Origin: Candidatus Dadabacteria bacterium | GTDB lineage: Bacteria; Desulfobacterota_D; UBA1144; Nemesobacterales; CSP1-2 | Assembly: GCA_040289575.1 (NCBI GenBank) | Contig: PSLL01000040.1 | Location: 728 to 20,741 of the forward strand | Length of the DNA: 20,014 bases | Direction of reading: 5' to 3' | Shown: piece by piece, positions 3,044-20,014 of the stretch | How positions within the stretch are numbered: position 1 is the stretch's first letter | How the letters are laid out: every line of letters begins with the position of its first letter | Program-made: the position numbers and the translations under genes | Notes under the pieces: generated by a model | Seen by the model: only the letters and a program-made list of their open reading frames with translations | Told to the model about the DNA's origin: nothing | Databases searched by the model: none

Positions 3044-3049
3044 CTGATC

Positions 3050-3724: not shown

Positions 3725-3745
3725 TTGTGTTCCCCTTTGAAGAGT

Positions 3746-4519
3746 TTATTTTGATGCACTTCTAAAGCCATGACTAAAGCTTCTATCGTAGAGTTTTGAC
3801 CTTTTTCCACAAGCCTCTAAAAAATCTCCAACAAGAATAAGGGCGGTCTTTGTAATACTTGCACTTCTTACCTTAGGAACAATATCCCTGAGCTTTCCGT
3901 AAATGATTTTTTCATCCTTCCAAGAGGCTCTGTAGATCACAGCACAAGGTGTGTCTTCTTCATATCCATCTTTTAACTCTTTAACTACCTTTTCTATCAT
4001 ATGCACGCTTAAAAATATAGCCAAACTTGCCTTATGCCTTGCAAGGTCTCTTAGTTTTTGAGTTTCAGGTACAAGGGTTCTTCCCTCGCATCTAGTTAAA
4101 ATCACTGTTTGCGATATATCGGGAACAGTGAGTTCCCTTTTGAGAGCCGCCGCGGCAGCAAGGAATGAGCTTACACCAGGGATAATCTCGTAAGGAATTT
4201 TCGCCTTCTCTAGAAACTCTATCTGCTCGTGAAGGGTACCAAATATACTCGGGTCTCCATCATGAAGCCTTATAACTGTTTTTCCCTCTTCTAACGATCT
4301 TTTTATCAAATTTAGAATCTCTTCTAATGTTAAAGGGGCGCTGTCATAAAGCTCGGCACTTGGCTTTGCCCAACCTAGAATCTCCCTATTTAGAAGCGAC
4401 CCAGTGTAAATTATCACGTCCCCTGTTTTAACTAATCTTTTTCCCTTAACTGTTATTAATTCGGGGTCTCCTGGACCCGATCCCACGAAATATATCTTGG
4501 GGTTAGCAACCCTTTCCAT
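3746..4519 (-). CDS. cbiF: Cobalt-precorrin-4 C11-methyltransferase
   Basis: FVGSGPGDPELITVKG, YTGSL, RLHDGDPSIFG, IPGVSS, ELTVPDISQTVILTR, RSKLYD..FSHGFR (CbiF/CobM signature). Confidence 0.95.
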   Translation of the reverse strand: MERVANPKIYFVGSGPGDPELITVKGKRLVKTGDVIIYTGSLLNREILGWAKPSAELYDSAPLTLEEILNLIKRSLEEGKTVIRLHDGDPSIFGTLHEQIEFLEKAKIPYEIIPGVSSFLAAAAALKRELTVPDISQTVILTRCEGRTLVPETQKLRDLARHKASLAIFLSVHMIEKVVKELKDGYEEDTPCAVIYRASWKDEKIIYGKLRDIVPKVRSASITKTALILVGDFLEACGKRSKLYDRSFSHGFRSASK

Positions 4520-4550
4520 TTAACTCTCCGGGTTTGATTGTAAATAAAAT

Positions 4551-5372
4551 TTACTCGGGTACTGCAAGTGGAACTTCTAAAGCCATCTTTTTCATACTGA
4601 GTTCATATTTATTGTGATACCCTCGCGGTGTAATCATAAGTTCCTCGTATGTAAAAGTAGAAGAGTTTCCTATTATTATCGTTGTAAGCATACCGATTGG
4701 GAAATCCAGCATGTGATCAAGATCAGTAATGATAATGTTCTGTCCGTCACGATATGCGCTCTTTACGATCCCGACAGGGGTAGAGCCCTCTCTATATTTT
4801 CGAATCATCTTCTGAGTTTCTACTATCTGCCATGTGCGCCTTCCGCTTTTTGGGTTATAAAGAGCTATTACAAAATCTGCCTGAGCAGCAGCCTCAACCC
4901 TCTTTAGAATGACCTCCCAGGGAGTAAGGAGGTCACTGAGGCTTATTGAAGCAAAGTCATGCATTAGAGGCGCACCGAGAAGTGAACCAACAGCACTTAA
5001 GGCTGTAACCCCTGGAACAACCTCAACCTCAAGCCCATAACTGGGTCTCCATCCGTCTTCTTTTAAAACCTGAAAAATAAGCCCAGCCATTCCGTAGATC
5101 CCAGCATCACCGCTTGAAATCACGACAACTGTATTTCCTTTTTTTGCTATATCTATAGCTTTTTTTGCTCTATCTACCTCCTCAGTCATTCCCGTATAGA
5201 TAATTTTTTTCCCACGAATCAGATCCCTTACAAGCTCAATATAAGTTGTATATCCGACAATCACATTACTTTCCTCTATTACCTTTTTAGCGCGAGAAGT
5301 AATATGATCCTCACTTCCGGGACCAAAACCCACTATAAACATCTTTCCTACTTTTTGTCCTTTTTCACTCAT
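4551..5372 (-). CDS. cbiH: Cobalt-precorrin-3B C17-methyltransferase
   Basis: VGFGPG, IVGYTTY, SSGDAGIYGMAG, GAPLMHDF..ISLSDLLTPW, ALYNPKS, MITPRGY (CbiH/CobJ signature). Confidence 0.95.
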   Translation of the reverse strand: MSEKGQKVGKMFIVGFGPGSEDHITSRAKKVIEESNVIVGYTTYIELVRDLIRGKKIIYTGMTEEVDRAKKAIDIAKKGNTVVVISSGDAGIYGMAGLIFQVLKEDGWRPSYGLEVEVVPGVTALSAVGSLLGAPLMHDFASISLSDLLTPWEVILKRVEAAAQADFVIALYNPKSGRRTWQIVETQKMIRKYREGSTPVGIVKSAYRDGQNIIITDLDHMLDFPIGMLTTIIIGNSSTFTYEELMITPRGYHNKYELSMKKMALEVPLAVPE

Positions 5373-5383
5373 ATAAATTCCTC

Positions 5384-6475
5384 CTATTTAAACCTTATTC
5401 TCGCTATTGCCAGTGTTGCCATTTTAGATTTAACCTTTGGAACAATAAGCTCTCCCCAACTGCTACCAAGAATTGCAGAGGGCTCTGCAACTCCAATAAC
5501 ACCTACGTACTTCATCGCCATTGCCGACGGATTTGGAACATCCGTTATCTGATTAAGCTTATCTTTTGTGAAGTATTGAACTGAAAAGCTATATTTCTCC
5601 GCAAACCTGTTAATTCCCTCTTCTTTTTTTCTATTATCAATTGTTGCGATGCTTTTTACACTCTTTAGAGACAGGCAGTTTTTCTCGAGAGTTGAAACAA
5701 CAAGTTCTTCAACCTCATCTGCCGATACCCCCCTGTCGCACCCGATTCCAAGCACAAGGCTCTTAGGTCTATAGAGAACCGCTTTCTGAAGAATAGAAGA
5801 ATAGCTTTCATTAAGAACTCTATCAGTGATTATCAAATACGCTGCACATCCTTCACTAACCATTGTATCTAATGAGCTGTAGATTTTTATATTTTCGGGA
5901 ATAGGTGTTTTTCTTCTCCACCAGTTCTTTTCTCCTGTACTCTGAAAAAGACCGATTTTTTCTCCATTCACAACGGCAGCACTTACTTTTGTAATGTTTT
6001 CTTTCCCCTCAAGTATCCAGCCAAACTCCCGTCCAAGAATATCAACAGGTATTGTCTTTCCAACATCAGAAGCCGTAGTTATCACAGGCGTTGACTCTAG
6101 AAGCCCTGCTATATCTTCTGTGAGTTCATTTGCTCCGCCTATGTGGCCTGAAAGGACGCTGATTACAAAGTTTGCGTTATCATCAATTGTAATCACAGCA
6201 GGATCAATATGCTTATCCTTTATGTGTGGAGCGATAATTCTTATGACTGCACCGAGTGAAACGAAAAAGACCAAAGCGTCGTAACAAGGCCATATATCGA
6301 CTATAAGTTCTCTCAGTGATAATTCAAAGAAATTGACCCCTCCTCCCACCTCGTCTCTAAATTTGGATGAGACAAAAAGATCGCCCCTTCCGAGGAGGTC
6401 TCTAAGTCTGTTCCCGAGTTTTGCTCCATGCTTTGTTATTGCAACTATAGCGATTTTTTCTACAAAATCACTCAT
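5384..6475 (-). CDS. cbiG: Cobalt-precorrin-5A hydrolase CbiG
   Basis: GAVIRIIAP...DK..DPAV, SVLSGHIGGAN, PVITTASD, LGIGCDRG, GVAEPSA. Confidence 0.95.
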   Translation of the reverse strand: MSDFVEKIAIVAITKHGAKLGNRLRDLLGRGDLFVSSKFRDEVGGGVNFFELSLRELIVDIWPCYDALVFFVSLGAVIRIIAPHIKDKHIDPAVITIDDNANFVISVLSGHIGGANELTEDIAGLLESTPVITTASDVGKTIPVDILGREFGWILEGKENITKVSAAVVNGEKIGLFQSTGEKNWWRRKTPIPENIKIYSSLDTMVSEGCAAYLIITDRVLNESYSSILQKAVLYRPKSLVLGIGCDRGVSADEVEELVVSTLEKNCLSLKSVKSIATIDNRKKEEGINRFAEKYSFSVQYFTKDKLNQITDVPNPSAMAMKYVGVIGVAEPSAILGSSWGELIVPKVKSKMATLAIARIRFK

Positions 6476-7707
6476 TTCTTCTCCCCACTTATTACAAAGA
6501 CCGGATTTAGTGCATCAAACCTTGTAAGCCCTATAAGTTCTTTGCTCCTTGCCACACTTATAAGCGTCGCATCAAAAGTCAAGTTGCACCCCTTAAGCCC
6601 TGAGGTAGCCTCGTGTAGATTTTCAATTGTTACAGCGTTTATAACTATCTTCCCACCGGATTTTAGTACCTCAGCACACTTTGCAATTATCTCCCTCATA
6701 TTTCCCGAACTCCCCCCTATGAACACCGAATCAGGACGATCTTCAATCTCATCAAGACAATCAGGAGCAATGCCACAGATCACCTTTAGGTTTTGCACTC
6801 CGAATTTTTCTATGTTCTTCTTTATGTTCTCAATATCTTCAGGGTTCTTTTCAATTGCATAGACCATGCCTGATTTGGCAATAAGCGCAGCCTCAATTGA
6901 GACGGAGCCCGAGCCGGCTCCGATGTCCCATATAACACTTCGGCTTCTTATATTCATCTTTGAAAGGCTTATAACTCTTATCTCTTGTTTCGTAATAAGC
7001 CCCTTTTGGGGTGTACGCTGAAAGAACTCTTCATCCGCAATACCTATAGTCCAACTCCTCGTTGGCTCTACTTTAAACTCCTCCTCTTTCTTTACAAGAA
7101 TAAGAACGTTTAAAGGAGAAAACTCCATATGGATTAAATCTCCGAGTTCAGCTTCTGTGACCCTCTCATCTTCTCCACCTAAATTCTCACATATATAGAC
7201 TTTAAACCCACTTAGACCATTTTTGAGAAGGAAATCCGCGATTCTAGAAGGTGTGTTTTTATCATCTGTAAATACTCCTATTTTCTTCGCTTTATCTACA
7301 ATATCTAAAAGGCTCTCTATAGGTTTTGCGTGAATACTTGCAAGGACAGCGTCATCCCAGCTTTCTTTTACCCTTGCAAAAGCAATCTGCATTGAGCTTA
7401 CATTGGGGATTACCTCAAAATGCTCTTTTGGAATTTTACTCATAAGATACTTAGCTATTCCATAAAAGAGCGGGTCGCCTGAGGCAAGAACAACCATCCT
7501 TTTTTTATCCAGATTATTGGATATTATCTTTACCACATCACTCAGGTTTGACTTTACAGTAATTTTTTGAGAAGAAACGCCAGGAAAAAAAGAAAGGTGT
7601 CTTTCCCCACCAAAGAGAATTTCAGCTCTTTCAACTATCTCAAGAACCGAAGCACTCAGACTCCTTCTGCCATCATCTCCAATACCAATTATATAAACCT
7701 TATTCAT
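6472..7707 (-). CDS. cbiET: Bifunctional cobalt-precorrin-7 C5-methyltransferase / cobalt-precorrin-6B C15-methyltransferase (CbiE-CbiT fusion, CobL-like)
   Basis: N-terminal IIGIG, GGERHL, LASGDPLFYGI, ENLG..DER; C-terminal ITKQEIR, WDIGAGSGSVSIE, PD.VFIGGS.G, NPV. Confidence 0.95.
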   Translation of the reverse strand: MNKVYIIGIGDDGRRSLSASVLEIVERAEILFGGERHLSFFPGVSSQKITVKSNLSDVVKIISNNLDKKRMVVLASGDPLFYGIAKYLMSKIPKEHFEVIPNVSSMQIAFARVKESWDDAVLASIHAKPIESLLDIVDKAKKIGVFTDDKNTPSRIADFLLKNGLSGFKVYICENLGGEDERVTEAELGDLIHMEFSPLNVLILVKKEEEFKVEPTRSWTIGIADEEFFQRTPQKGLITKQEIRVISLSKMNIRSRSVIWDIGAGSGSVSIEAALIAKSGMVYAIEKNPEDIENIKKNIEKFGVQNLKVICGIAPDCLDEIEDRPDSVFIGGSSGNMREIIAKCAEVLKSGGKIVINAVTIENLHEATSGLKGCNLTFDATLISVARSKELIGLTRFDALNPVFVISGEKK

Positions 7708-7708
7708 T

Positions 7709-8803
7709 CTATCCCTCTGCTCTTCCTATTACGTTTCCATCAAAATCAGTAAGAATCGCCTCAACACTCATTTGTTCTCCTACTCGTTCTTTTGATACAT
7801 GGACGATTTTTTTACACAAGAGATCAAAAAACTCTCTTTTTCCCTGAGCCTCTACAATCTCATATACATGGCGTGCAGAATTTGCTTGTTCAATCTGTTT
7901 AACAACTTCATTATCAATTCCTACTTCATCAGCAAGGCCAGCCAAAAAACCCATATCTACCTGAGACCCGGCAGCGTGGGTTTGTTTTACTCCCATTGCA
8001 GTTTTTGAAAACTTTCCTATCATTCCGCAAAAGGTGATCTTCCTGATTCCCACCTGCTTTGCACATCTTTCGGCAAAGGCAACAAAATCGCCCATTTCAA
8101 CAAATGCCTCTTCTTTGAGATCGGGATAAATTGCCATGGCGAATTTCTCGCTTTTCCCACCTGTTGTAAGTACAATGTGATCACAATCATTTGCATATGC
8201 CACATCTATTGCCTGCTTTATACTCGCTTTAAAAGAAGCTGTAGAATAAGGCCTCACAATACCAGTTGTTCCGAGTATAGATATTCCTCCAATAATTCCT
8301 AAGCGTGCATTAAGCGTCTTCTTTGCAAGCTCCTCGCCCTTGGGAACACTCACTACTACCCTTAAGCCTCTTTTTTTAAGTTCATCCCCCAGCGCTTCTT
8401 CAACCGAATATCGGATCATTTTTCTTGGTACTGGATTTATAGCAGGTTCTCCTATTTCTAATCCAATTCCGGGCTTTGTTACGACTCCCACTCCCTTTCC
8501 ACCCTCTATTTTTATTTCGCCTGAAGTACCTATCCATGAAACACTTGAGCAGATTTCGGCTCCATGCGTCACATCCGGATCATCTCCTGCATCTTTTATT
8601 ACGGAACAGAGAACCTCATTTCCATCGATCTCACACCTTTCAATCTTAAATTTCACTATCCTCTTAATAGGGAGAGTAATCTCCACATCCGATTGGGGTA
8701 CACCTGTAAAAAGAGCAACGGCCGCCGCCTTTGCTGCTGCGGCTGCACAAGCACCGGTCGTAAAGCCTGTGCGTGTCCCCCGTGTCCTTGACCTGTCCTC
8801 CAT
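7709..8803 (-). CDS. cbiD: Cobalt-precorrin-5B C1-methyltransferase CbiD
   Basis: RTGFTTGACAAAAAKAA, KDAGDDPDVTHG, GVGVVTKPG, AINPVPR, TLNARLGIIGGISILGTTGIV.P.S. Confidence 0.97.
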   Translation of the reverse strand: MEDRSRTRGTRTGFTTGACAAAAAKAAAVALFTGVPQSDVEITLPIKRIVKFKIERCEIDGNEVLCSVIKDAGDDPDVTHGAEICSSVSWIGTSGEIKIEGGKGVGVVTKPGIGLEIGEPAINPVPRKMIRYSVEEALGDELKKRGLRVVVSVPKGEELAKKTLNARLGIIGGISILGTTGIVRPYSTASFKASIKQAIDVAYANDCDHIVLTTGGKSEKFAMAIYPDLKEEAFVEMGDFVAFAERCAKQVGIRKITFCGMIGKFSKTAMGVKQTHAAGSQVDMGFLAGLADEVGIDNEVVKQIEQANSARHVYEIVEAQGKREFFDLLCKKIVHVSKERVGEQMSVEAILTDFDGNVIGRAEG

Positions 8804-8818
8804 TTGTTCTCTCCATTC

Positions 8819-9478
8819 TTATCCCTTCTCAGTTGAGAGTCTTATAAGTGCATTCATTGCTGCAACAGCCACTGGGGTTCCGCCTTTTCTTCCCCTAGTA
8901 ACAATATATGGAATATCATAATTACCTAGTTTTAAGGCCTCTTCTTTTGCCTCAATTGCAGAGACAAAACCCACAGGCACCCCAATAACAAGCGATGGGA
9001 AGAGCTTCTTATTTCTTACAAGCCTTATAAGTTCAAAAAGAGCTGTAGGAGCATTGCCGATAGCAAAGACGCTCCGCGGACAAACATTGGCTGCCTTTCT
9101 CATTGAACAGATTGCACGCGTAATGCCGAGCTCTTTTGCCTTTTGTGCTACATCTTCATCACTCATAAAGGAGAGCACCTCGCATCCAAACTTAGAAAGT
9201 CCGGATTTATTTATTCCAGCCCTTATCATCTCAACATCAACAACTATATTTTCTCCTCTTTTTATTGCATTAACTCCGCTTTTTACTGCTTCTGGATGAA
9301 AGACGGTATTTTTTGCAAAATCAAAGTCGGCTGTTGCATGGATTATTCTTACAAGAACCGTAAACTCCTCAGGTGAGAGCTGTGGTTTAGCTTTCATCTC
9401 CTCTAGTTCGGTCTCTATGATCCTAAAGCTTTCGCCCTCTATCGCTTCGGGGTTTATGATTTTAGGTTCCATACTCAT
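8819..9478 (-). CDS. cbiC: Cobalt-precorrin-8 methylmutase
   Basis: IE..SF.II, RIIHATADF, IGNAPTAL, GVPVGFV, GRKGGT.VA.A..NAL. Confidence 0.96.
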   Translation of the reverse strand: MSMEPKIINPEAIEGESFRIIETELEEMKAKPQLSPEEFTVLVRIIHATADFDFAKNTVFHPEAVKSGVNAIKRGENIVVDVEMIRAGINKSGLSKFGCEVLSFMSDEDVAQKAKELGITRAICSMRKAANVCPRSVFAIGNAPTALFELIRLVRNKKLFPSLVIGVPVGFVSAIEAKEEALKLGNYDIPYIVTRGRKGGTPVAVAAMNALIRLSTEKG

Positions 9479-9490
9479 TATTTCTCTTCT

Positions 9491-10342
9491 CTATTCTTTG
9501 CCATGATAATGTTCCTTGTGGCCTTCATAGTGCTCCAGAGGAAGCTTTACTCTATATTTACACACCTCGCAGTTCATAAATGTTGCTCCTCTTATAGCTT
9601 CATCAGCCCTCTCTACCATAAGCTTCACGAGATTGGGATGTACACCTAGGTAATCGCACAGTAGAAATTCAATCTTTGAATAGGTTGATTTCACCTCCAA
9701 TACTCTCTGCTGAATCCGCTTTACAAGAACGCCGGTAAAGAGAAAATATGGAAGGATTATCACACGCTTTGCCCCTAGAGAAACACACCTGCGAACCCCC
9801 TCAAAGAAATTCGGAAAAGTCACACCTATAAAGCACACCTCAACGTATTTGAATCTTCTCACTTCCCAAAATAGTCTTGCTATTTTATAAAGATCGCCAT
9901 TGGCATCAGGATCGCTTGATCCACGGCCCACGATTAGAACGGCTGTATCACTTCTGTCAGAAGGTGGTGAACTTGATTCAGCTTTTTCTATAATTTCACC
10001 CAGGATTTCTAAAATTAGAGGATTTACTCCAAAGGGTCTCCCATAGTAGAATTTTACGTAAGGATATCTTTCTCTTGCGACATCAAGCTCATGCGGAAGG
10101 TCAATCTTTACATGGCTTGCGGCAAAGAGAATCACAGGAAGCATTATAATTTGTCTTGCCCCTTGAGTAACACATTTGGCAATCCCTTCCTGAACAAGTG
10201 GCTCAGCAAGCTCTATAAAACAGGACTCAATCATCACCTTATCGTTAGAAGCCACTCGTACAGCTTCAGCAAACTTTAAAAACTCAGCATTTCCCTCAGG
10301 GTCACGGCTCCCATGCCCTACTAATAAAATCGCTTCCCTCAA
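9491..10342 (-). CDS. cbiX: Sirohydrochlorin cobaltochelatase, long-form CbiX
   Basis: LVGHGSR, FIELAEP, ASHVK.D.P, GRGSSDPDAN, PYFLFTGVL; C-terminal MNCEVC plus His-containing tail. TTG start overlapping the cobO stop. Confidence 0.93.
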   Translation of the reverse strand: MREAILLVGHGSRDPEGNAEFLKFAEAVRVASNDKVMIESCFIELAEPLVQEGIAKCVTQGARQIIMLPVILFAASHVKIDLPHELDVARERYPYVKFYYGRPFGVNPLILEILGEIIEKAESSSPPSDRSDTAVLIVGRGSSDPDANGDLYKIARLFWEVRRFKYVEVCFIGVTFPNFFEGVRRCVSLGAKRVIILPYFLFTGVLVKRIQQRVLEVKSTYSKIEFLLCDYLGVHPNLVKLMVERADEAIRGATFMNCEVCKYRVKLPLEHYEGHKEHYHGKE

Positions 10343-10875
10343 TATTCAATTCCTCTCCTTGCTTCCAAACCGTCTTTATATGGATGTTTAATCTCAACCA
10401 TCTCCGTAACAAGATCAGCTATATCAATTATCTCCTTTGGCGCACGCCTTCCAGTTAGAATTAATTCCAAATTCTCAGGCTTACTTTTGATTAGATCTAT
10501 AACTTCCTCAATCCCGATAAACCCATAATCCAGCGCAAGATTTATCTCATCAAGAATTAGCAAATCAAAATCGCCTTTTTCTATAACGTCTTTTGCAAAG
10601 TATAAAGCCCGGTGTACCGCTTCTTTTGATTCTTCTGATTTTCTTTTTACAGGTACATAAATTTTCCCCTCTGGAATGGGTGGCGTACCGAATTGATGGA
10701 TTTCAAATATCTTTGTATTTTCAGCAAAGAGATGCTCTCCGCATTTAGAATTCCTTTTTAAAAACTGAATCACGCATACTTTAAGTCCATGTCCTATTGC
10801 CCTTAGGGCAAGTCCAAGCGATGCGGTCGTTTTTCCTTTTCCATTCCCAGTGTAGACCTGAGTAATTCCTTTCAT
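10339..10875 (-). CDS. cobO: Cob(I)yrinic acid a,c-diamide adenosyltransferase (CobO/BtuR/CobA type)
   Basis: VYTGNGKGKTTASLGLALRA.GHG, QFLK, ILDEI, ELILTGR, ADLVTEM..IKHP, GIEY. Confidence 0.96.
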   Translation of the reverse strand: MKGITQVYTGNGKGKTTASLGLALRAIGHGLKVCVIQFLKRNSKCGEHLFAENTKIFEIHQFGTPPIPEGKIYVPVKRKSEESKEAVHRALYFAKDVIEKGDFDLLILDEINLALDYGFIGIEEVIDLIKSKPENLELILTGRRAPKEIIDIADLVTEMVEIKHPYKDGLEARRGIEY

Positions 10876-11540
10876 TCCTTACCTCGAATTATTAAAAGCG
10901 AGAAATATTCTCCTTCTTCTACTTCCCTTGCTTTAACCACTTTCCCTTCTTTAAAACAAAGAACATCCTTTCCTATACTTTCTGCTATAAGGATGGCCTC
11001 TTTAACAAAGTTGGTCGGTTTCACAATAATCACGGTCTCACAAGCAGAGATAATTTCTCTTAGTCCACCCAATCCGTATGCAAGGGGAAAGATTGCTACC
11101 TTTTCAGAACCAATAGCCAAAGGAACCAGAGCAGAAGCAGATGCTGTGCTAAGTGATGTAATACCTGGAATGACTTCTACCTCTAGCTGTTTGTCTTTAA
11201 GAAACCCTATAAGCCTTCCCCCTGTCCCGTAAAGAAACGGATCGCCTATGCATAGAAAAATCACCTTTTTGCCTTCTCGCGCCTCTTTTAGAATCTCAAT
11301 AGAAGCCAATCTGTCATATTCTTCTATCACGCTTTCATCTTTAACCATTGGGAAATAGAGCTTTCTTATCTCCTGAGCTGAAGACAAAAATCTGAAGACA
11401 ATGCTTAAAGCCCTGCTTTTTCCACCTTTACGTCCTGTAGGGGTAAAAATCACATCTGCTTCCTTAATTCTTTCTAAAGCCTTAAGCGTGATTAAACCCT
11501 CATCTCCAGGCCCCACACCTACGATTGAAATCATGCTCAT
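10872..11540 (-). CDS. cbiL: Cobalt-sirohydrochlorin (factor II) C20-methyltransferase
   Basis: VGVGPGD..LITLKA, L.FPM, GDPFLYGT, VIPGITS, terminal YFSL; CbiL/CobI pattern, and the only tetrapyrrole methylase role otherwise unfilled in the operon. Confidence 0.88.
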   Translation of the reverse strand: MSMISIVGVGPGDEGLITLKALERIKEADVIFTPTGRKGGKSRALSIVFRFLSSAQEIRKLYFPMVKDESVIEEYDRLASIEILKEAREGKKVIFLCIGDPFLYGTGGRLIGFLKDKQLEVEVIPGITSLSTASASALVPLAIGSEKVAIFPLAYGLGGLREIISACETVIIVKPTNFVKEAILIAESIGKDVLCFKEGKVVKAREVEEGEYFSLLIIRGKE

Positions 11541-11544
11541 TGTC

Positions 11545-12942
11545 TTATCCCTGCCCTTTTATCTTTATACAACACTCCACTGCATTTTTAATTCTTTCTG
11601 GAATCCTTTTTGCCACCTCAGGATTTGAAGCAAGATGGATATGGGTATATGAAGCCAATGTGTTTTTAAAATACAGACCGTCTTTCCCAATTCCTCCCGC
11701 TGAGCTTAATACTCTATAAGAAAAATTCAGATCCGATCTAGGTATAAGCTCCGAATAATGAAACTCATGGCCCTTCATCCTATCCCTCCTATCAAATAAA
11801 CTCACCCTTTTTTCTACAAAAACCTCTCTGTAGCCAAGCACCCTGAGTTCCGGTCTCATAACCGTCTTTATAGGCAAAACGCCAACCATATTAAACCCCT
11901 TTTCATCAACTGTCTCTATCTGCTCACCCAGATACATAAGCCCCCCGCACTCGGCATAAACGGACTTGCCCGAAATTACAAAATTCCTTATCTCTTCCTT
12001 TAGGTTTGAGTTTTTCTCAAGAACATCAGCGTAGACCTCAGGGAAACCCCCACCGATGTAAATCCCATCAAGATTTGAGGGAAGCCTCTCATCCCTCATG
12101 GGAGAAAAAGGGATGATTTCACAACCGTAAAATATCAAAAGATCGAGATTATCCTCGTAGTAAAAAGAAAATGCCTCGTCTCTGGCAAGTCCAACCCTCA
12201 CTATATTTTCCTTGGGTCCACCTATAAAAACTGTTTTCCCATAAGGGGGTATCTGTGGAGAGCTTTTTGCAATCTTAACAAAGGACTCTAAATCAATATG
12301 ATTTTCTAAAAGCGCTGCGATCTTTTCAGCCTTATTAATTAGATCAGATTTCTCTACAGCCGGAATAAGCCCCAGATGGCGCTCCTCAATGGATACCTCC
12401 TCTCTTCTTGGAATTCCACCCAAAACTCGGATTCCAGTTCTCTGCTCGATTCTCCCTTTTACATGATTAAAGTGGGCTTCCCCGCCAACTCCGTTCAGTA
12501 TTACTCCCTCGATTCTTACCTCAGGGTCAAATAACTTGAACCCCAAAACGGTTGCCGCAATGGAGGTTGAACTCCCTCCTACATTTACAACAAGAATAAC
12601 AGGGGCTTTTAAGACTCGTGATAAGTGGGCGGTGCTTCCCCTATCATCGGGATAAGCCCCATCGAAAAGACCCATGACCCCCTCTATTATGGATAAATCA
12701 GCCCCGGCCGAATTCCTATCAAAAAGCTCGAGCACCACACCTTCATTCAACATCCACAGATCGAGGTTTCTTCCCTTTCTACCCGTAAAGATCTCATAAT
12801 ATGACGGGTCAATATAATCAGGACCAGTTTTAAACCCCTGAACCTTAAGCCCTCTTTTTGAGAAGGCTTTCATTAGTCCAAGTGTGATTGTCGTTTTGCC
12901 AGAGCCGCTTTCTTCACCAGCAATTATGATTCTGGAAGACAA
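11545..12942 (-). CDS. cbiA: Cobyrinate a,c-diamide synthase
   Basis: SGSGKTT P-loop, FKTGPDYIDP, IEGVMGLFDG, ERHLGL, DEAFSFYY, GGGFPE, YAECGGLMYL, GHEFHYS, ASYTHIH; TTG start after an AAGGGGGA RBS. Confidence 0.96.
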   Translation of the reverse strand: MSSRIIIAGEESGSGKTTITLGLMKAFSKRGLKVQGFKTGPDYIDPSYYEIFTGRKGRNLDLWMLNEGVVLELFDRNSAGADLSIIEGVMGLFDGAYPDDRGSTAHLSRVLKAPVILVVNVGGSSTSIAATVLGFKLFDPEVRIEGVILNGVGGEAHFNHVKGRIEQRTGIRVLGGIPRREEVSIEERHLGLIPAVEKSDLINKAEKIAALLENHIDLESFVKIAKSSPQIPPYGKTVFIGGPKENIVRVGLARDEAFSFYYEDNLDLLIFYGCEIIPFSPMRDERLPSNLDGIYIGGGFPEVYADVLEKNSNLKEEIRNFVISGKSVYAECGGLMYLGEQIETVDEKGFNMVGVLPIKTVMRPELRVLGYREVFVEKRVSLFDRRDRMKGHEFHYSELIPRSDLNFSYRVLSSAGGIGKDGLYFKNTLASYTHIHLASNPEVAKRIPERIKNAVECCIKIKGQG

Positions 12943-13011
12943 GTTTCTATTCCCCCTTGAGAGAAAATACTATAATCCCTCCAAGACAGTTAAAGTCCAG
13001 GAGAGATCGTT

Positions 13012-13785
13012 CTACTGTTTGACACCCTCCAGTAAGTGAATTATTACGCCATTTATCCCGGGTAAAAGGTAGATAACAACTCCCGCAATTATAATGGCAA
13101 ATCCAGCGTAACGGAGAAGCCGTTTTGAGTAGAATCTCTTAAGAACAAAACCAATGACCATTCCACCAGTCAACACAGCAAAGGCAGAAATAAGACAACC
13201 CACTGAAAAAAGTAGAAACGACCAATTGACAACAGTGTAAGAATCCCTATCCATTAAGGCATTACCCTCGATAGCAGCAAACACACCGACAATAATCAAG
13301 CTCAGCAATAGTGGCAAAGGCTGGCGGAGGGCCAAAATTGATCCTAGGATAAGAACCGAGGCTAAAATCCACTGCTCAAGAAATGGCACTGCAATTCCAT
13401 TCACATTTAGCAATCCACCGATTAACATAAGAAAACCAAATGCCCCGGGCACAGCCCACAGTGCTCCTCCTCCGAGTTGTACAGCCATCAGACCAACTCC
13501 CAAGGCCACCAGCAGATGGTCAACACCGTGAATCGGCATGGAGAGCCCTTGAATAAATGGCATACCTGTCATCCACTCTGCATGATGTGCGAATGCATCA
13601 GAGGGCGTTAAAATAAGAAATAGAACGGTAATAAACAAAGTAAACACGATGCCTAAAGTCTGTTTACTAATTGCACCGTTTTGTCCCCCGTTCTCATTTG
13701 CCTTTGGTATAGGATTTAAGACCGCTGAAAAGTAAACCGAAGTTACAACCCACAATAGACAATTAAGTAAATAAAAATCCACCAC
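13012..13785 (-). CDS. HupE/UreJ-family Ni/Co transporter, probably cobalt uptake
   Basis: AFAH followed by GL..P..G.DHLL, W.VP..F...M..GG, P..E..I..SV..LG; multiple TM segments; first gene after a B12 riboswitch; strong AAGGAGGT RBS before GTG. Confidence 0.85.
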   Translation of the reverse strand: MVDFYLLNCLLWVVTSVYFSAVLNPIPKANENGGQNGAISKQTLGIVFTLFITVLFLILTPSDAFAHHAEWMTGMPFIQGLSMPIHGVDHLLVALGVGLMAVQLGGGALWAVPGAFGFLMLIGGLLNVNGIAVPFLEQWILASVLILGSILALRQPLPLLLSLIIVGVFAAIEGNALMDRDSYTVVNWSFLLFSVGCLISAFAVLTGGMVIGFVLKRFYSKRLLRYAGFAIIIAGVVIYLLPGINGVIIHLLEGVKQ

Positions 13786-13933
13786 TATCTACCTCCTTCG
13801 GAATTTTATGAATTATCCTCAGGAGATAGATAGAATTGAGGTATAAACATCTTAGTGAAAGCTTATCAGGACAGTTGGGATGAATGGAGAATAAATTTAA
13901 GAAGTCAAGAACCATCGGCCTATCTCCCGAGGC
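13785..13933 (-). promoter_or_regulatory. Riboswitch expression platform: SD-sequestering hairpin and competing helix
   Basis: Anti-SD CTATCTATCTCCT (13833-13821) pairs over 13 nt (one G-U) with AGGAGGTAGATAG (13797-13785). CCTCGGGAGATAGG (13932-13919) can alternatively pair over 14 nt (two G-U) with TCTATCTCCTGAGG (13830-13817). Confidence 0.85.
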
Positions 13934-13942
13934 AATTCTTAG

Positions 13943-14146
13943 GTTTAGGTAGGTCTTCCGGCTTCTGGGCTGAAATTCTCTTACTGCTTTCCACTTCCCT
14001 AGCCTTCCCAGAGTGGAAGCTTTTCACCCCTCAACTCCAGTGGCCTGAAGCCTTGTTACAGAGGCTTCAATCGAAAAATGGATTTTATACCCAGTTACGG
14101 CTGCGGGAACAGCTCAGGATTTTCACCTGATTCCCTTAACCTAACT
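13943..14146 (-). ncRNA. Cobalamin (AdoCbl-class) riboswitch aptamer
   Basis: Minus strand reads AGGTTAAGGGAATCAGGTGAAAATCCTGAGCTGTTCCCGCAGCCGTAA...GCCACTGG...CTGGGAAGGC...AGAAGCCGGAAGACCTACC. These match the AGGGAA, GGTG.AA.TCC, CCCGC, GCCACTG, GGGAAG and B12-box elements, directly upstream of a cob operon. Ends approximate. Confidence 0.96.
14115..14141 (+). repeat. 27-bp direct repeat, copy 1 (inside the riboswitch 5' core)
   Basis: caggattttcacctgattcccttaacc, identical to 19888-19914. Confidence 0.95.
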
Positions 14147-14157
14147 TTGTAATTAAT

Positions 14158-14186
14158 ATCCTATAACCTTCTCAATGATTTGTCAA
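14158..14186 (-). promoter_or_regulatory. Sigma70-type promoter of the riboswitch/cob operon
   Basis: TTGACA (14186-14181), 17-nt spacer, TAGGAT (14163-14158), about 12 nt upstream of the aptamer's 5' strand. Confidence 0.8.
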
Positions 14187-14327
14187 GAGCAGGATTAGAA
14201 ATTAAGGAGTTTGTCTAGGAGGTTACCAAAATGCTTCTTATAACTGCCCGTGAGTCTTTGTCTCTGTGATTAATCCCGACCCCGCTTCCTTTCCTTTTTT
14301 CTTACAAATAGTTTTCATACAGTTATT

Positions 14328-15110
14328 CTATATATCTAAGAGATTATGGTTCTTATAAATCAAGTATAAACCCAAAATGATGATAAACCAACCAAACATT
14401 TTTGTCAGCTTATGTTCAGGCATTCGGCCGGCCAGTGCCGTGCCGGAGAAAATACCAATCATACCACCAAGAACAAAGAGCTCCATAATCCTAGAATCTA
14501 TAACACCAAAGCTAAGATGTCCCAGGAAACCCGAGACGGATACCATAGTAATGACAAGGAGTGAGGTCCCTATAGCCGAATGAGCCGGGAAATTCCACCT
14601 AAGTACAAGAGCCGGTACAATCAGAAATCCACCACCTATTCCAAAAAAGCCCGTCAAGAGTCCCACCACAAAACCAATAGCTATAAAACCAAGCCAACCC
14701 TTTTGTGTGTAAACTCCGCACGGCGTACTTAGTCCACTAGATTGACTGGTATTACCCTTCCTTAACATACTTAGCCCCATCACTATCATAAGCAAACCAA
14801 AGAAAAAAAGGATAACTTTGTCGTCAATAAGATGATTCAACCAAACACCGGGAATTGCACCAACCATAGATACGAATCCAAAGACGAAACCGCTTTTGAT
14901 TCGTACGTTTCCTCTACGGCTATGCGCCAGTACACCTAATAGAGCACTTGCGCCGACAATAGCAAGTGATGTCCCTATAGCAGAGTGAACATCCTCACCA
15001 ATCACGTAAACAAGAATAGGAACTGTAAGAATCGAGCCACCTCCACCTAAGAGCCCCAATAGAAAGCCGATAAAACTGCCAAAGGCCAGAGAGAGAACGA
15101 CTTGGTCCAT
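14328..15110 (-). CDS. Sulfite exporter TauE/SafE family membrane protein
   Basis: Duplicated motifs GLLGGGGSILTVP..AIGTSL and GFFGIGGGFLIVP..AIGTSL; about 8 hydrophobic segments. Confidence 0.92.
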   Translation of the reverse strand: MDQVVLSLAFGSFIGFLLGLLGGGGSILTVPILVYVIGEDVHSAIGTSLAIVGASALLGVLAHSRRGNVRIKSGFVFGFVSMVGAIPGVWLNHLIDDKVILFFFGLLMIVMGLSMLRKGNTSQSSGLSTPCGVYTQKGWLGFIAIGFVVGLLTGFFGIGGGFLIVPALVLRWNFPAHSAIGTSLLVITMVSVSGFLGHLSFGVIDSRIMELFVLGGMIGIFSGTALAGRMPEHKLTKMFGWFIIILGLYLIYKNHNLLDI

Positions 15111-15144
15111 ATTAAAACCCTCTCTCGTTAATCATCACATATAT

Positions 15145-16443
15145 TTATTCAACTCTGAACTTTTTACCTCTATAAATTAGGGTTTCATGCATAAATTTCG
15201 CTACTTCTACTCCGGAAATAAATGTTAAAGCGCCTATAGTACCAATTGCCCACGAAATACCAAATCTATCTGCAATTATTCCAGAGAGAAGCGCCCCAAA
15301 AGCATATCCCATATCCCTCCAAAACCGATAAACTCCTACTGATGATGCTCTTAACTCGGGGTGAACTACATCGCTTACCGCTGCAAGTAGGGTTGGATAA
15401 ACAAGGGCTGTTCCTAAGCCCAAGAGAACCGAGCCTGTTATCCAAGCTCCAAAGCTTCTGGTCAGTAGTACTACACATATTCCTAGAGCTTGAACCCACA
15501 TTCCCACTGCAATCATCCACTTTCTACCTAATTTATCACTAAGAGCCCCTGTCCAAAGCTGTAGAATCCCCCATGTAGCTGGATAAGCAGCCGAAATTAT
15601 TCCGATCCTACTGACACCCAACCCGGTAGAGACAAAGAACAAAGGAAAAAGTCCCCATGCCATACCGTCGTTGAGATTGTTTACCAAACCAGCTTGGCTT
15701 ATACTGAATAGAACCTTATTCTTCCAACTCGTGATGAAGAAAATCTCTTTAAATGATAACTCCTTTCTTTGTCTATGAACTGAAATTTCATTAGTAGTAC
15801 TATCTTCAACAAACTTTAGCCCAAAGTTTGTTGCCTCGTGCTGGGCATGGCTTTGGGTTTCTTTAATAAAAAAAGCAGAAAGAATAAAACCCAACAGAGT
15901 AAAGGCTATACCGAGGTAAAAAGGTTGGGGGCGTAAAGCATATAAAGCAGCAATATATCCGGTTGCTAAAGCAGAAAGAGACACGGAAATATACCCGGCA
16001 AACTCGTTTAGTCCCATTGCAAGCCCTCTTTGGTGAGGTCCTGCAAGATCAATCTTCATTATGACTGTCATTGACCAGCAAAGCCCTTGATTTATACCGA
16101 GTAAAATATTTGCAAAGATAATCCAATTCCATCCAGGAGCCAATATTATGAGAAAAGGTACGGGAAGTCCTATAATCCAGCCTACTAAAAGAACCTTTTT
16201 TCGCCCTAAGTAATCGGAAAATCGCCCGGCGAAAAGATTGCTCAAGGCTTTAACAATACCAAAGCTTACTATGAACGAGAGGGTAAGGCTTTTAGATACG
16301 AGTCCAAAATCCCTCTCAGCAATTAAAGGAACTATAGTTCGCTCTAGCCCTACCATTCCTCCAACAAAGGCATTAATAAGTACCAAAAGAGAAAATTGAC
16401 CGAGGTTTTCCCTTAGCCCGAGTGTTATTTCACGGTTAGACAT
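15145..16443 (-). CDS. MFS transporter
   Basis: Motif A in both halves (GRFSDYLGRKKVL; GALSDKLGRKWMI); about 12 TM segments. The LGLREN..QF.LLV.INAFVGGMVGLER N-terminus is typical of MFS proteins found near rhodanese clusters. Confidence 0.92.
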   Translation of the reverse strand: MSNREITLGLRENLGQFSLLVLINAFVGGMVGLERTIVPLIAERDFGLVSKSLTLSFIVSFGIVKALSNLFAGRFSDYLGRKKVLLVGWIIGLPVPFLIILAPGWNWIIFANILLGINQGLCWSMTVIMKIDLAGPHQRGLAMGLNEFAGYISVSLSALATGYIAALYALRPQPFYLGIAFTLLGFILSAFFIKETQSHAQHEATNFGLKFVEDSTTNEISVHRQRKELSFKEIFFITSWKNKVLFSISQAGLVNNLNDGMAWGLFPLFFVSTGLGVSRIGIISAAYPATWGILQLWTGALSDKLGRKWMIAVGMWVQALGICVVLLTRSFGAWITGSVLLGLGTALVYPTLLAAVSDVVHPELRASSVGVYRFWRDMGYAFGALLSGIIADRFGISWAIGTIGALTFISGVEVAKFMHETLIYRGKKFRVE

Positions 16444-16459
16444 AAGATTAAATTTTAGG

Positions 16460-17074
16460 TTAGATTTTTAAGCCCTTATTCAAGGCTTCTTTTTTGGTTT
16501 GCTGTGCTTCTATTGGGCTTTCTGACGTGTATACTTCTTCTCGCTGTTCAATTCGTGTTAACCACCAAAGCGCTGTAGTAAGTAGGGCCGCCCAGATTAG
16601 GGCTGTTGATAGCACTGGCGAGCCCAATATCGAGGGAATCGTGATCTTGCCGAAATTCGCTGTCTCGATGAAAATCGACTTAAGTAAAGGATAGGCAAAG
16701 ATAAAAACAAGCGCTCCGACCAAGCCGCCTAATACAGCCAAAACACCCTCGCCAATGCCTGACCCCAAACCTACAACCGCTGTACCCCGACAATACTCTC
16801 CAAGCGCTATACCAATTCCAAAGATTAGACCCCCTACTGTTACACCCCACAAGTATAGGGGTTTGACTTTGAAGTGTGCTACCTCCGGTGCCAATGCCCA
16901 AAGTATATGTGTTCCGATGGTACCCACGATGATTGCTGTGAGCATAACCTTGAGCATCGTAAAATCCCTCAGCCATAGACCGCGATACACAATATTACAC
17001 CTACTAAAGCCGGCTCGATGTAGTGCGAATCCAAATACAATTCCTGTTATCAGACCTAAAATAAGGGTCATCAT
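16460..17074 (-). CDS. YeeE/YedE-family sulfur-compound transporter subunit (possibly degenerate)
   Basis: G..FGF.L.R, DFTMLKVM..AI, GG.IFGIG.AL..YC.GT; the usual G(G/Y)CPG motif reads EYCRG. Confidence 0.82.
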   Translation of the reverse strand: MMTLILGLITGIVFGFALHRAGFSRCNIVYRGLWLRDFTMLKVMLTAIIVGTIGTHILWALAPEVAHFKVKPLYLWGVTVGGLIFGIGIALGEYCRGTAVVGLGSGIGEGVLAVLGGLVGALVFIFAYPLLKSIFIETANFGKITIPSILGSPVLSTALIWAALLTTALWWLTRIEQREEVYTSESPIEAQQTKKEALNKGLKI

Positions 17075-17093
17075 AGGATTTCCCTCCTATTTA

Positions 17094-17672
17094 TTATTTC
17101 TTAGGCTCACGGAAAAAAAGCCAAGCAACTAGAGTTCCTGACCCAAAGGCAGAAGCGCCAAAAACCAGCCCGCTAATGGCCATCTGAGTGAGCCCGCTTA
17201 ACATATGGCCAGTTGTATAACCTCCAACTAATCTAGCTCCAAAGATAAAGAGAAAGCCACCAACGAACGCCCGTGCGTAGCGCCTTAACCGACCCCCTTC
17301 AAAACCCACTACGCAAACCGGCGCTACATCTAGTTTTTGATTAGAGGAGATACTCAGTCGGTTCAGTCCATGCGAAAGCAATGCTCCTATGAAAAGTCCA
17401 AAGACAAGCATTACTTCCTGGCCTATCTTTGTCCCAATCTCGCGAAGGTAAAGCTGATGTTCCGCAAAGCCGGGAAATATCTTGTCTAATACGAAGCCGG
17501 CAAACTGTGGGTAGGCCGTCGAGACCCCTAGTGGTCCAAAAGTGGTAATTGCAAACACTTGCACCAGCCCGATTACAGCACCTCACTTAAGCCATACCGG
17601 TGCCTTTACCCAATATAGGCTTAATCTACTTAACTCAGCAGTTCTACCAAGCTCCAGTTCACGAACACTCAT
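17094..17672 (-). pseudogene. YeeE/YedE-family transporter subunit interrupted by an in-frame TGA
   Basis: AAGGAG RBS then ATG at 17672: MSVRELELGRTAELSRLSLYWVKAPVWLK*GAVIGLVQVFAITTFGPLGVST... The TGA at 17585-17583 is in frame with the tracked 17094..17564 ORF. The C-terminal GARLVGGYTTGH replaces the usual GARLAGGCTSGH. Confidence 0.75.
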
Positions 17673-17685
17673 AGGTATAACTCCT

Positions 17686-18260
17686 TTAAATAAACAGTGT
17701 CACCTTGGACTTTACTGCATCTCCTAGATATGTAGCGGCACCGCCTACTTCAATTCCATCTATGAGCTCCTCTTTTCTGATTCCCATTACATCCATTGAC
17801 ATCTGGCATGCAATCATTCTAACATCCATTTCTCGTGCCATCTCTATAAGCTCTTCAAGTGTTGCTACATCCTTTTGCTTCATCATAAACCTAAGAAGCT
17901 TCGCTCCTACTCCGAAGAAGTTTAGCTGTGAAAGCGGCATCTCCTCTGTACCAGACGGTGTCATTAAAGCCAAAAGTTTTTCGAAAATATTTTTTTCTTT
18001 GAGTTCAGCTCTGCGCTTTAAGGTAGAAAGTCCCCAAAAAGTAAAGAACATAGAAACTTCTATACCCAGTGCAGCGGCTCCTGTGGCTATGACAAAGGCA
18101 GCACTCGGTCAAGTTCTCCTGAAAAAACAACCATAGTTACTCGATTTTTGGGTAACTCCTCTTTTATCTCGGCAACTTCACGCTCCAGAGCTTCGATGCG
18201 TTCTTCGAGGGTGGGTACTTTTTGTTCAGTTTCAATGGCCCTTAAATTCTTCATATCCAT
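17686..18260 (-). pseudogene. DsrE2/YrkE-like (DsrE/DsrF/DrsH family) sulfurtransferase split by a frameshift
   Basis: One frame gives ..VTMVVFSGELDR. Another frame continues AAFVIATGAAALGIEVSMFFTFWGL...MIACQMSMDVMGI...GGAATYL...VTLFI. The junction is at about 18103. Confidence 0.85.
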
Positions 18261-18275
18261 TTCTATCACCACCTT

Positions 18276-18530
18276 TTATGATTTTCTTTTAACATAGTGG
18301 ATGTAGACATCTTTCCCATCTGCATCACTTTCCACTTCCTGACTGACAAGCTCAATGTTTTTTGCAACCTGAGCCCAGCCCTTAAAATCATTGACTGAGC
18401 CAGGGTCAGTTGCTATTACTTTAAGTATCTCTCCTATAGAAAGATTACTAACCTCCTGCTTTGCCTTAATCACGGGAAGTGGGCATTTTGTCCCTTTTAC
18501 ATTAAGCTCCTTGTGGTATTCCACTGCCAC
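18276..18530 (-). CDS. TusA/SirA-family sulfur carrier protein
   Basis: 84 aa; L.VKG.KCPLP motif, GEILKVIATDPGS..DF..W; GTG start after AAGGAGGT. Confidence 0.93.
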   Translation of the reverse strand: MAVEYHKELNVKGTKCPLPVIKAKQEVSNLSIGEILKVIATDPGSVNDFKGWAQVAKNIELVSQEVESDADGKDVYIHYVKRKS

Positions 18531-18556
18531 TTTAGGTCACCTCCTTAAAAATTTCT

Positions 18557-19732
18557 CTAAGACTGATAAGCATGTGCTAGAGCACATACATTCTTTCCCA
18601 ATTCGAACTCATTTTCCTTTTCTTCTTCTACTTCAATTAGTCCTGCATTCACCCTTTTTATATCTAAATACTGGGGTGGAAAAACAGGTAGACTCGAAAG
18701 TATGTAATCAACGAATTCCTTCTCTGAGCGTGGGGAAAGATCAGGGTTTTTCCTTTTGAGTTCACCCAAAGTAGCTATAAATACTCCATCCTCTCTTGCT
18801 TCACTGAATGTACTAAAATGACCCGGCAGAACATTAATGTCATCGGGGAGTTTAAGCAGCTTCTCAAACAGGCTTCTATAGTGAAGAGGAGCCCATGTAT
18901 CTGCCCTTCCACCTAAGTCGGGACGAGAAATCGAGTTTATGAATATGCTGTCTCCGGTAAATAGATACCTTTGCTTTCCCTCAATCAGATAAGCAAGATT
19001 TCCAAGTGTGTGTCCAGGAATATGGATAACATTAAGCGTCGCTTCTCCCAGTTTAAACTTCATTCCATCCCAAAGAGGTTCGTAGGAAATCCTCGTAGGA
19101 AGAACATCAATTGGATGAATCCCGTCGTAGGGATGCAGGTAGTAAGGCGCACCTGTCTTTTTAGATAAAGTAACTCCCCCGCTTATGTGGTCTGCATGGG
19201 CATGTGTGTCGAAAATATGGGTTACCCTTAAATTCATCTTTCTGGTAAGCTCAAGTATTTGCTCAATGTGACGGGGTGGGTCAATAACCACTGCTCTATC
19301 CCCATAGGCTACAATATAGTGAAGACAACCACGTGCTGCGCGCTCGAGTTGATAAATCCTTACTACATCACTAAAACTTTCAGTCAGTTCATGTATATCA
19401 TAAAAACTTCCCCAGCCTAACATTCCGCCCTTAAGGCTTAGAGCCTCATAACCACGTGGGTGGAGGATATCATTTGTAACCCAATTAGAGGACTCTCCCT
19501 TCGCACATACTACAATAATAGGCCTATCCTTTGGCACTTTTTTAGCGCTCTCTTCCTCATTCTCAAGAAACTCAAAATAGGGAACATTTAAAATTTCAGG
19601 CTTGTTTTTACCCTCAATATGCCATCTTGAAAACTCTTCTTGGTTTCTTACATCTAGAATAAAAACAGGCCCGCTATTGAGTCTTTGCTTTAATTCATCT
19701 GGTGTTATTTTAGCATTGTTTTTTTCTACCAT
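18557..19732 (-). CDS. Rhodanese + metallo-beta-lactamase fold fusion (persulfide dioxygenase/sulfurtransferase-like; YrkH-like domain order)
   Basis: N-terminal rhodanese (ILDVR...EF..WHI, VVCAKG, SLKGGM..W); MBL motifs DTHAHADH, PGHT, FTGD, RPDL, PGH; C-terminal ELGKN.CA. Confidence 0.9.
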   Translation of the reverse strand: MVEKNNAKITPDELKQRLNSGPVFILDVRNQEEFSRWHIEGKNKPEILNVPYFEFLENEEESAKKVPKDRPIIVVCAKGESSNWVTNDILHPRGYEALSLKGGMLGWGSFYDIHELTESFSDVVRIYQLERAARGCLHYIVAYGDRAVVIDPPRHIEQILELTRKMNLRVTHIFDTHAHADHISGGVTLSKKTGAPYYLHPYDGIHPIDVLPTRISYEPLWDGMKFKLGEATLNVIHIPGHTLGNLAYLIEGKQRYLFTGDSIFINSISRPDLGGRADTWAPLHYRSLFEKLLKLPDDINVLPGHFSTFSEAREDGVFIATLGELKRKNPDLSPRSEKEFVDYILSSLPVFPPQYLDIKRVNAGLIEVEEEKENEFELGKNVCALAHAYQS

Positions 19733-19887
19733 GTTCTATCCCCCTTTTTATTTGCTTCTACTATCATAAATGCAAAAGGTATTGAATGGGTTACAAAAAA
19801 CAACTTCTTCATCGAGGCGGCTCTCGCCTTAAGAGATTCTTGAGATTCTATCTAATCCTAAAGTGGCCAGAGATGATTAGGAAAGGC

Positions 19888-19914
19888 CAGGATTTTCACC
19901 TGATTCCCTTAACC
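19888..19914 (+). repeat. 27-bp direct repeat, copy 2 (isolated 5' fragment of a cobalamin riboswitch on the minus strand)
   Basis: caggattttcacctgattcccttaacc, identical to 14115-14141. Similarity continues for about 10 nt with two 1-nt indels (taactttg vs ctaacctttg). Confidence 0.93.
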
Positions 19915-20014
19915 CTAACCTTTGATTATTGCTTTGTTGCAGACATCATTTCTTAGGGATTGCTTGCTCAATGTTAATTCATGTATAGGCATCGTTGTAT
20001 TGTAGGGGCTGATG

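Follow-up and report, generated by a model that had tools for sequence, protein, structure and literature searches.

The question raised by this locus is why a piece of a cobalamin (B12) riboswitch occurs twice, once on each side of a block of sulfur genes. The window, by which we mean the whole 20,014-nt stretch of DNA analyzed here, lies on contig PSLL01000040.1 (C93) of a Candidatus Dadabacteria bacterium, whose 3.06-Mb assembly we call G000; G001 is a sister genome of the same genus. An earlier note on this DNA had proposed that the riboswitch served as an integration site, in the manner of tRNA and tmRNA genes, and had named recombination between riboswitch copies as a fallback. The evidence favors the fallback. 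We consider it moderately probable that the repeat is the scar of an import of DNA from a congener, in which a homologous crossover in the aptamer was combined with an illegitimate joint at the other end. The features that carry the argument are the following:

13931 to 14159, minus strand: complete cobalamin riboswitch aptamer, the context of copy A of the repeat (RF00174, 69.6 bits, model 1–189)
14115 to 14141, plus strand: copy A of the 27-mer, aptamer core including the first hairpin, near the riboswitch 5′ end
19888 to 19929, minus strand: copy B, read here as a displaced 5′ stub (~42 nt) of the hupE riboswitch, consisting of the 27-mer (19888–19914) and a 5′ P1 strand
13012 to 13785, minus strand: hupE (HupE/UreJ metal transporter; Pfam PF04955, E 1.3e-33), the first gene under the riboswitch
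14328 to 19732, minus strand: sulfur gene block, ~5.4 kb of genes (NCBIfam, Pfam)

The repeat was confirmed genome-wide. The 27-mer, CAGGATTTTCACCTGATTCCCTTAACC on the plus strand, is exact and in the same orientation at 14115–14141 and 19888–19914, as had been reported from the window, and these are its only sites in the 3.06-Mb assembly with up to 3 mismatches allowed. It is the longest, and the only long, exact direct repeat within 13900–20014, and two matches were reached in 0 of 100 shuffled sequences. The further similarity of about 10 nt reported around it does exist, but on the minus strand most of it is found on the 5′ side of the 27-mer, where it covers ~15–17 nt with indels. A match of 6 of 8 bases on the 3′ side (minus strand) was rejected as chance; the same sequence is found in G001 without any riboswitch there.

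Two doubts had been voiced about the repeat, namely that it might be an assembly artifact and that the 27-mer might be common to all B12 riboswitches of this genome. Neither held. A 20,630-nt contig from run X1 spans 13500–19959, and a contig from run X4, which belongs to a different study, spans 19676–20014 with zero differences, so that contigs from two studies bridge the joint beside copy B. Short contigs from X3 and X4 connect the flank of copy A to the TauE gene of the block. Contig depth in these two runs was similar across hupE and the block (~3–5), with the block in one assembled copy. The second RF00174 match of the genome, on contig C22, lacks the 27-mer. Among the 20 RF00174 loci of the family, the exact 27-mer was present in two, the hupE riboswitches of G000 and G001; 16 of the remaining 18 were 7–10 substitutions away from it, and the other 2 had no match within 10. 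Judged from these loci, the 27-mer is specific to the hupE riboswitch lineage within the family. It also occurs exactly in three unrelated metagenome contigs, where the likeness is limited to 45–49 nt of the aptamer; identity of the core is therefore by itself no proof of common origin. An exact 27-mer scan of genome contigs found only that of G001, and the scan of metagenomes found, beyond those three unrelated contigs, no other strain.

Only copy A belongs to a complete riboswitch, and the upstream copy diverges after the hairpin, as had been described. The copy A context is a full-length RF00174 match (69.6 bits against a cut-off of 31.5), with P1 pairs that are partly non-canonical. A permissive cmscan of 19400–20014 gave no Cobalamin match for copy B at E ≤ 10; a 42-nt stub falls below detection by the covariance model. 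On the minus strand, copy B proceeds through ...AAATCCTG and then switches to GCCTTTCCTAATC.... The best cmscan matches there were miRNA and snoRNA models at E 0.4–8, which are noise, and the idea that copy B is a variant riboswitch was rejected. Motifs resembling GCCACT and AAGGC downstream of copy B were likewise set aside, being part of the antitoxin remnant described below. The hupE riboswitch itself is a long variant of 229 nt.

Among the 31 relatives searched, G001 was the only genome with long matches to the DNA at 12900–20014. Its contig C114 (5,950 nt) is 95% identical to window positions 14263–19890, the block being 94–96% identical, and the start of its contig C37 is 86% identical to 12900–14178 and then colinear with window positions 1–12900 at 87%. 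The end of C114 abuts the start of C37 as in G000, and a G001-like contig from run X5 bridges hupE, the riboswitch, and TauE. Because the two contigs abut and the X5 contig bridges this boundary, the assembled sequence indicates that the block in G001 is directly upstream of the orthologous riboswitch. The G001 genome contains one 27-mer only. At its far end, the G001 block runs through a decayed toxin-antitoxin remnant into tRNA-Thr, which has an overlap of 55 identical bases with the end of contig C52.

Homology between G000 and G001 ends exactly at 19887|19888. The X5 contig stops matching at the same point, and its loose end is G001 sequence. Two features meet here:

19831 to 19887, plus strand: remnant of a small gene (putative antitoxin) with a frameshift, cut off at 19887 in G000
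19887 to 19888: joint of the antitoxin remnant to riboswitch position ~45, illegitimate, with no microhomology evident

Positions 19831–19886 are 82% identical in DNA to part of a 79-aa gene, of which the relative G014 has two intact copies. In G014 this gene sits upstream of a ParE-family toxin gene (toxin open reading frame [ORF] PF05016, 28.7 bits against a cut-off of 23). No Pfam match was obtained for the 79-aa ORF, and the remnant is a putative antitoxin by its position. Beyond the breakpoint, G001 continues with sequence that still aligns to the intact G014 genes, at the place where G000 switches to riboswitch sequence; for this reason the alignment indicates that G001 shows the older state of the boundary and that the joint in G000 is derived.

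The surroundings of the region differ as well. In G001, the sulfur block and the cbi operon lie between tRNA-Thr(CGT) and tRNA-Met (C52/C114/C37; L031, L006, and L036). In G000, tRNA-Thr (C12, which is L030, and C50) is followed after ~1.2 kb by genes that in G001 are on another contig, and this locus has neither the remnant nor the block. Because the tRNA-Thr contexts differ in this way, the whole 20-kb region has different neighbors in the two species. The third species of the genus, G002, was uninformative, having no riboswitch or hupE beside cobB.

The two copies could next be compared with the G001 riboswitch for the strand preceding the 27-mer. On the minus strand, the 15 nt of the stub upstream of the 27-mer, TAATCAAAGGTTAGG, are identical to the 5′ strand of the G001 riboswitch, and the unrelated riboswitches sharing the 27-mer have other sequences in those 15 positions. 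Copy A differs from G001 in 14 of 37 columns of this flank, in 0 of 27 columns of the 27-mer, in 9 of 184 columns of the rest of the aptamer, and in 19 of 148 columns of the leader. The energies of the P1 duplexes were as follows:

Stub (copy B) 5′ strand with the resident 3′ strand: −15.2 kcal/mol
Present copy A 5′ strand with the resident 3′ strand: −8.0 kcal/mol
G001 5′ strand with the G001 3′ strand: −12.9 kcal/mol

Copy A also had the lowest RF00174 score of the 20 family matches (69.6 bits, compared with 80.7 for G001). Because the stub is identical to the G001 strand and pairs more strongly in P1, and because copy A scores low, the resident 3′ strand seems to have been paired originally with the stub, and the present 5′ strand seems to be the newcomer. 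The copy A riboswitch would thus probably be chimeric, its 5′ P1 strand having come in from outside and the remainder being resident. The geometry described earlier holds: copy B reads as a 5′ portion of the hupE riboswitch that has been displaced, and the DNA beside copy A supplies the present 5′ strand and a promoter-like site. That DNA includes the following:

14158 to 14186, minus strand: promoter-like site TTGACA-17-TAGGAT (read from 14186 to 14158) just upstream of the riboswitch, in a region common to G001
14202 to 14262, minus strand: 61-nt stretch between TauE and the promoter, missing in G001 by alignment

The promoter sequence of G001 type reads …TCATTGAGAAGGTT…. The stretch at 14202–14262 has no further copy in the G000 genome, and the X5 contig omits 14202–14293 and has 30 other letters in its place.

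The block and the genes downstream of the riboswitch have diverged from G001 to different extents, as seen from the third-codon differences:

Block (8 ORFs): 145/1716 (0.084)
hupE and 14 cbi ORFs: 1057/4507 (0.235)

The block is thus ~2.8-fold less diverged (Fisher p 3e-46), and other syntenic stretches of G000 and G001 are 84–87% identical. Close homologues of the rhodanese-metallo-β-lactamase (MBL) protein encoded by the first block gene were found in 2 of 15 family genomes (E ≤ 1e-40) and, across the order, in 2 of 101 genomes (E ≤ 1e-60), in both cases G000 and G001. By its sequence divergence and distribution, the block behaves as horizontally exchanged DNA.

The direction, order, and mechanism proposed here would account for what is shown above, namely the structures and the breakpoint, the contrast in divergence, and the P1 pairing energies. 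In this genus, the sulfur block, acquired horizontally, would have its place directly upstream of the hupE-cbi promoter and B12 riboswitch, as seen in G001. DNA from a related strain would have entered an ancestor of G000 as a piece starting inside the remnant, running through the block, and reaching at least the promoter and the first part of the riboswitch. The riboswitch end of this donor DNA would then have undergone homologous exchange with the resident riboswitch, either in the conserved aptamer core or a short way downstream, and an illegitimate joint would have linked its other end to the resident riboswitch immediately beyond the first hairpin. As a result, ~42 nt of the resident 5′ end (copy B), presumably together with the resident promoter, would have been shifted 5.8 kb upstream, leaving copy A as a chimera of a donor 5′ strand and the resident remainder. 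A miniature inverted-repeat transposable element (MITE) would have inserted into the stub later. A linear fragment, as in homology-facilitated illegitimate recombination (HFIR), and a circularized fragment with a single crossover would give the same product and would be indistinguishable by these data.

A passage of PMC3240628 describes HFIR for naturally transformable bacteria and for E. coli conjugation, and a passage of PMC5361080 proposes it for displaced orphan gene pieces, as in Vibrio type VI secretion system effector displacement and Rhs orphan arrays. The present locus resembles these cases in having foreign DNA with one homologous anchor and one illegitimate joint, a displaced resident piece surviving as an orphan stub beside the newcomer, and neither a dedicated recombinase nor defined element ends. 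The riboswitch side is homologous, whereas 19887|19888 links unrelated sequences, and the insert is foreign or more recent than its flanks by both measures given above (0.084 against 0.235; 2 of 101 genomes of the order). The locus differs from those cases in that the anchor is a riboswitch aptamer instead of a coding region, the short resident piece is duplicated instead of deleted, the joint has no visible microhomology, and the event is reconstructed from two genomes instead of being observed.

Several points weigh against import by such an event. Experimental HFIR joints usually carry a few bases of microhomology, and the joint here shows none. The DNA upstream of the stub is unread, the contig ending in the MITE, and the predicted resident promoter is unseen. 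An allele without the block was not found among the genomes searched, which include only one close relative. The presumed donor must belong to a third, unsampled lineage; the copy A 5′ flank differs from G001 despite the 95% likeness of the block. The crossover point cannot be mapped owing to the conservation of the riboswitch. The chromosomal surroundings differ between G000 and G001, so that a larger rearrangement may be involved.

Such a rearrangement, an inversion or translocation of the cbi-plus-sulfur region in which the riboswitch piece was doubled by staggered breaks or template switching, is an unlikely explanation, though by a small margin the likeliest of the alternatives. It would fit the different neighbors of the region in the two genomes and the fact that both ends of contig C93 are repeats. 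By itself it explains neither the lower divergence of the block nor the pattern of differing riboswitch 5′ strands, and the assemblies are too fragmented for the order to be rebuilt.

We regard as rather unlikely a tandem duplication in the G000 lineage, made by joining riboswitch position ~45 to the antitoxin remnant. The block, promoter, and riboswitch 5′ end would have been doubled and the first copy later lost or disrupted, with copy B as its end. The joint has exactly the form expected, the end of one unit being fused to the start of another, and the sequence upstream of the stub, where the first copy would lie, is unread. The assembled block is nevertheless single, with like depth over block and hupE in the X3 and X4 contigs. 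Moreover, the non-functional stub has kept the G001-type 5′ flank and the better P1 while the working copy is altered, the reverse of what selection would lead one to expect. Further rearrangements would also be needed for the G000 tRNA-Thr locus to lack both remnant and block, and the low divergence of the block would be left unexplained.

Site-specific integration, in which the 27-mer would be the core of an attachment site within the riboswitch and the integrase would act in trans or be encoded beyond the contig end, is very improbable. What speaks for it is the exact direct repeat of 27 nt on either side of a horizontally exchanged block, together with the restored target RNA; the region beyond 20014, where an integrase could lie, is unread. 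In agreement with the earlier note, NCBIfam and Pfam scans of the ORFs between the repeats found sulfur-carrier, transporter, and MBL families only, and neither integrases nor transposases. In G001, moreover, the block occupies the same position beside just one 27-mer, so that attachment repeats at both ends are lacking. Nor do the ends match the repeats: the far boundary is inside a gene remnant that continues in G001, which makes it a breakpoint and not the end of an element, and on the other side the homology with G001 passes the outer flank of copy A without a break at the repeat. No terminal inverted repeats of at least 12 nt were found at the block ends. In contigs of four runs covering 13500–20014 there was no joint between the repeats, and neither an empty site nor a circle junction, which is weak evidence, as contigs drop rare forms and would scarcely have revealed one. 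The proposal that the riboswitch is an attachment site comparable to tRNA and tmRNA genes is not supported, in view of the missing recombinase, the single 27-mer in G001, and the undefined ends. Among the matches listed by a full-text literature search, none had a riboswitch as an attachment site, which is not a claim that none is in print.

An artifact or chance, either a chimera made by the assembler at a short repeat or the usual conservation of the aptamer core in two independent riboswitches, might be suspected from the three unrelated metagenome contigs with the exact 27-mer, the 86–92% conservation of the core in other families of the order, and the contig end 100 nt beyond copy B, but it has a negligible probability and is already largely refuted by the contigs of two studies bridging the joint, the shuffling result, the distance of the other riboswitches of the genome and family from the 27-mer, and the 15 additional lineage-specific bases that the stub has in common with the G001 hupE riboswitch.

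Two further known systems show a partial likeness to this locus. In islands and prophages at tRNA, tmRNA, and small RNA genes, acquired DNA is also flanked by a direct repeat of part of a structured RNA, which the incoming sequence makes whole again. A passage of PMC12540744 gives the 4.5S RNA gene ffs as a phage integration site. By contrast with such islands, the locus described here has no integrase, its repeat is missing in a sister genome with the block at the same place, its boundary is inside a pseudogene, and the 5′ end of the RNA is duplicated and not the 3′ end. Campbell-type integration by a single crossover would likewise leave a direct repeat on both sides, each a hybrid of donor and resident, which fits the differing 5′ flanks of copies A and B. 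It needs, however, a circle already bearing the joint of riboswitch and remnant, and none was seen; the shared 27–45 nt are also short for RecA-dependent exchange, unless the crossover was further down the aptamer.

Under the favored reading, import from a congener, a short conserved regulatory RNA can act as landing homology for imported DNA. The resulting working riboswitch would be a chimera with a weaker closing helix than before, and therefore rewiring of riboswitches would be a possible side effect of gene traffic. For annotation, the locus is a caution that foreign genes flanked by a direct repeat at a structured RNA need not, on that evidence alone, have arrived by site-specific integration; here, one sister genome sufficed to see this. 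A broader idea, which we hold to be improbable, is that the ultra-conserved aptamer core provides a patch of homology that can be carried from place to place, or even serves a trans-acting recombinase as a true attachment site, and that blocks are repeatedly swapped before riboswitch operons and leave stubs as footprints. Were this so, partial aptamers lying close to complete ones would mark such traffic genome-wide.

The genes of the window are all on the minus strand. Those of the sulfur block, in order of transcription, are these:

18557 to 19732, minus strand: rhodanese-MBL
18276 to 18530, minus strand: TusA
17686 to 18272, minus strand: DsrE2, split in the window by a 4-nt difference
17094 to 17564 and 16460 to 17074, minus strand: YeeE/YedE halves
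15145 to 16443, minus strand: major facilitator superfamily (MFS) transporter
14328 to 15110, minus strand: TauE

The number of seven genes given before is correct if orf61 (18087–18272) and the 121-aa DsrE2 ORF (17686–18051) are taken as one gene, and incorrect if the ORFs of the window are counted separately. In G001 the two are a single ORF (L006 3442–4152), and contigs from X1, X3, and X4 have 4 extra letters behind 18099. On these two grounds, a consensus error or a minor variant of the assembly probably accounts for the split seen in the window. The YeeE/YedE-type transporter is encoded by two adjacent ORFs of 156 and 204 aa, which correspond to the C-terminal and N-terminal parts and are swapped in order relative to the family profile. 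This two-ORF arrangement is kept at 95% identity in G001.

Clusters for sulfide/persulfide detoxification and thiosulfate handling contain a cst-type persulfide dioxygenase-rhodanese, TusA, DsrE, YeeE/TsuA, and TauE. The block resembles these clusters in having rhodanese-MBL, TusA, DsrE2, YeeE/YedE halves, and TauE together. It differs from them in having no regulator gene and no sqr and in adding an MFS transporter.

Downstream of the riboswitch, hupE is followed by a long set of cobalamin genes:

2 to 12942, minus strand: cbi/cob genes after hupE (cobB, cbiL, cobA, cbiX, and cbiC by NCBIfam and Pfam)

Over 45–49 nt, the hupE riboswitch is 86–98% identical to those found elsewhere in the order, in other families, and on unrelated metagenome contigs, yet its core is unlike the other loci of its own family. 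The riboswitch and hupE may together have been acquired from a foreign source. The divergence of the cbi operon from G001 is uneven: cobA and cbiL are 79–80% identical, and the ORFs at 3050–4519 are 92–93% identical. This pattern suggests that mosaic recombination may have occurred inside the cbi operon as well. A run of 34 N (C93:694–727) lies inside the first ORF of the cbi cluster, just before window position 1.

At the other end of the window, which is also the end of the contig (20014), the stub is followed by the MITE:

19921 to 19929, plus strand: expected 9-bp target-site duplication TTTGATTAT of the MITE at the 5′ edge of the stub
19930 to 20014, plus strand: first half of the ~205-nt MITE with terminal repeat TGCTYTGTTGCAAA; the contig breaks at its center

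The element is ~205 nt long and multi-copy, with terminal inverted repeats TGCTYTGTTGCAAA and TTTGCAACAGAGCA and 9-bp target duplications; at 7 inspected copies, these duplications were exact in 2 and had one mismatch in 3. In G000, blastn found 23 matches to it, spread over 19 contigs; 7 of these matches are almost complete in length, and several lie where a contig ends. Three contigs, C25, C30, and C21, end in the second half of the MITE, and none of them has the expected 9-bp duplication or a promoter-like flank that would mark it as the continuation beyond copy B. The MITE has a central palindrome, and many contigs of the G000 assembly break within it, several of them at its center. Copies are found at C99:23823–24022 and on C29, C126, C19, C119, C65, C33, and others.

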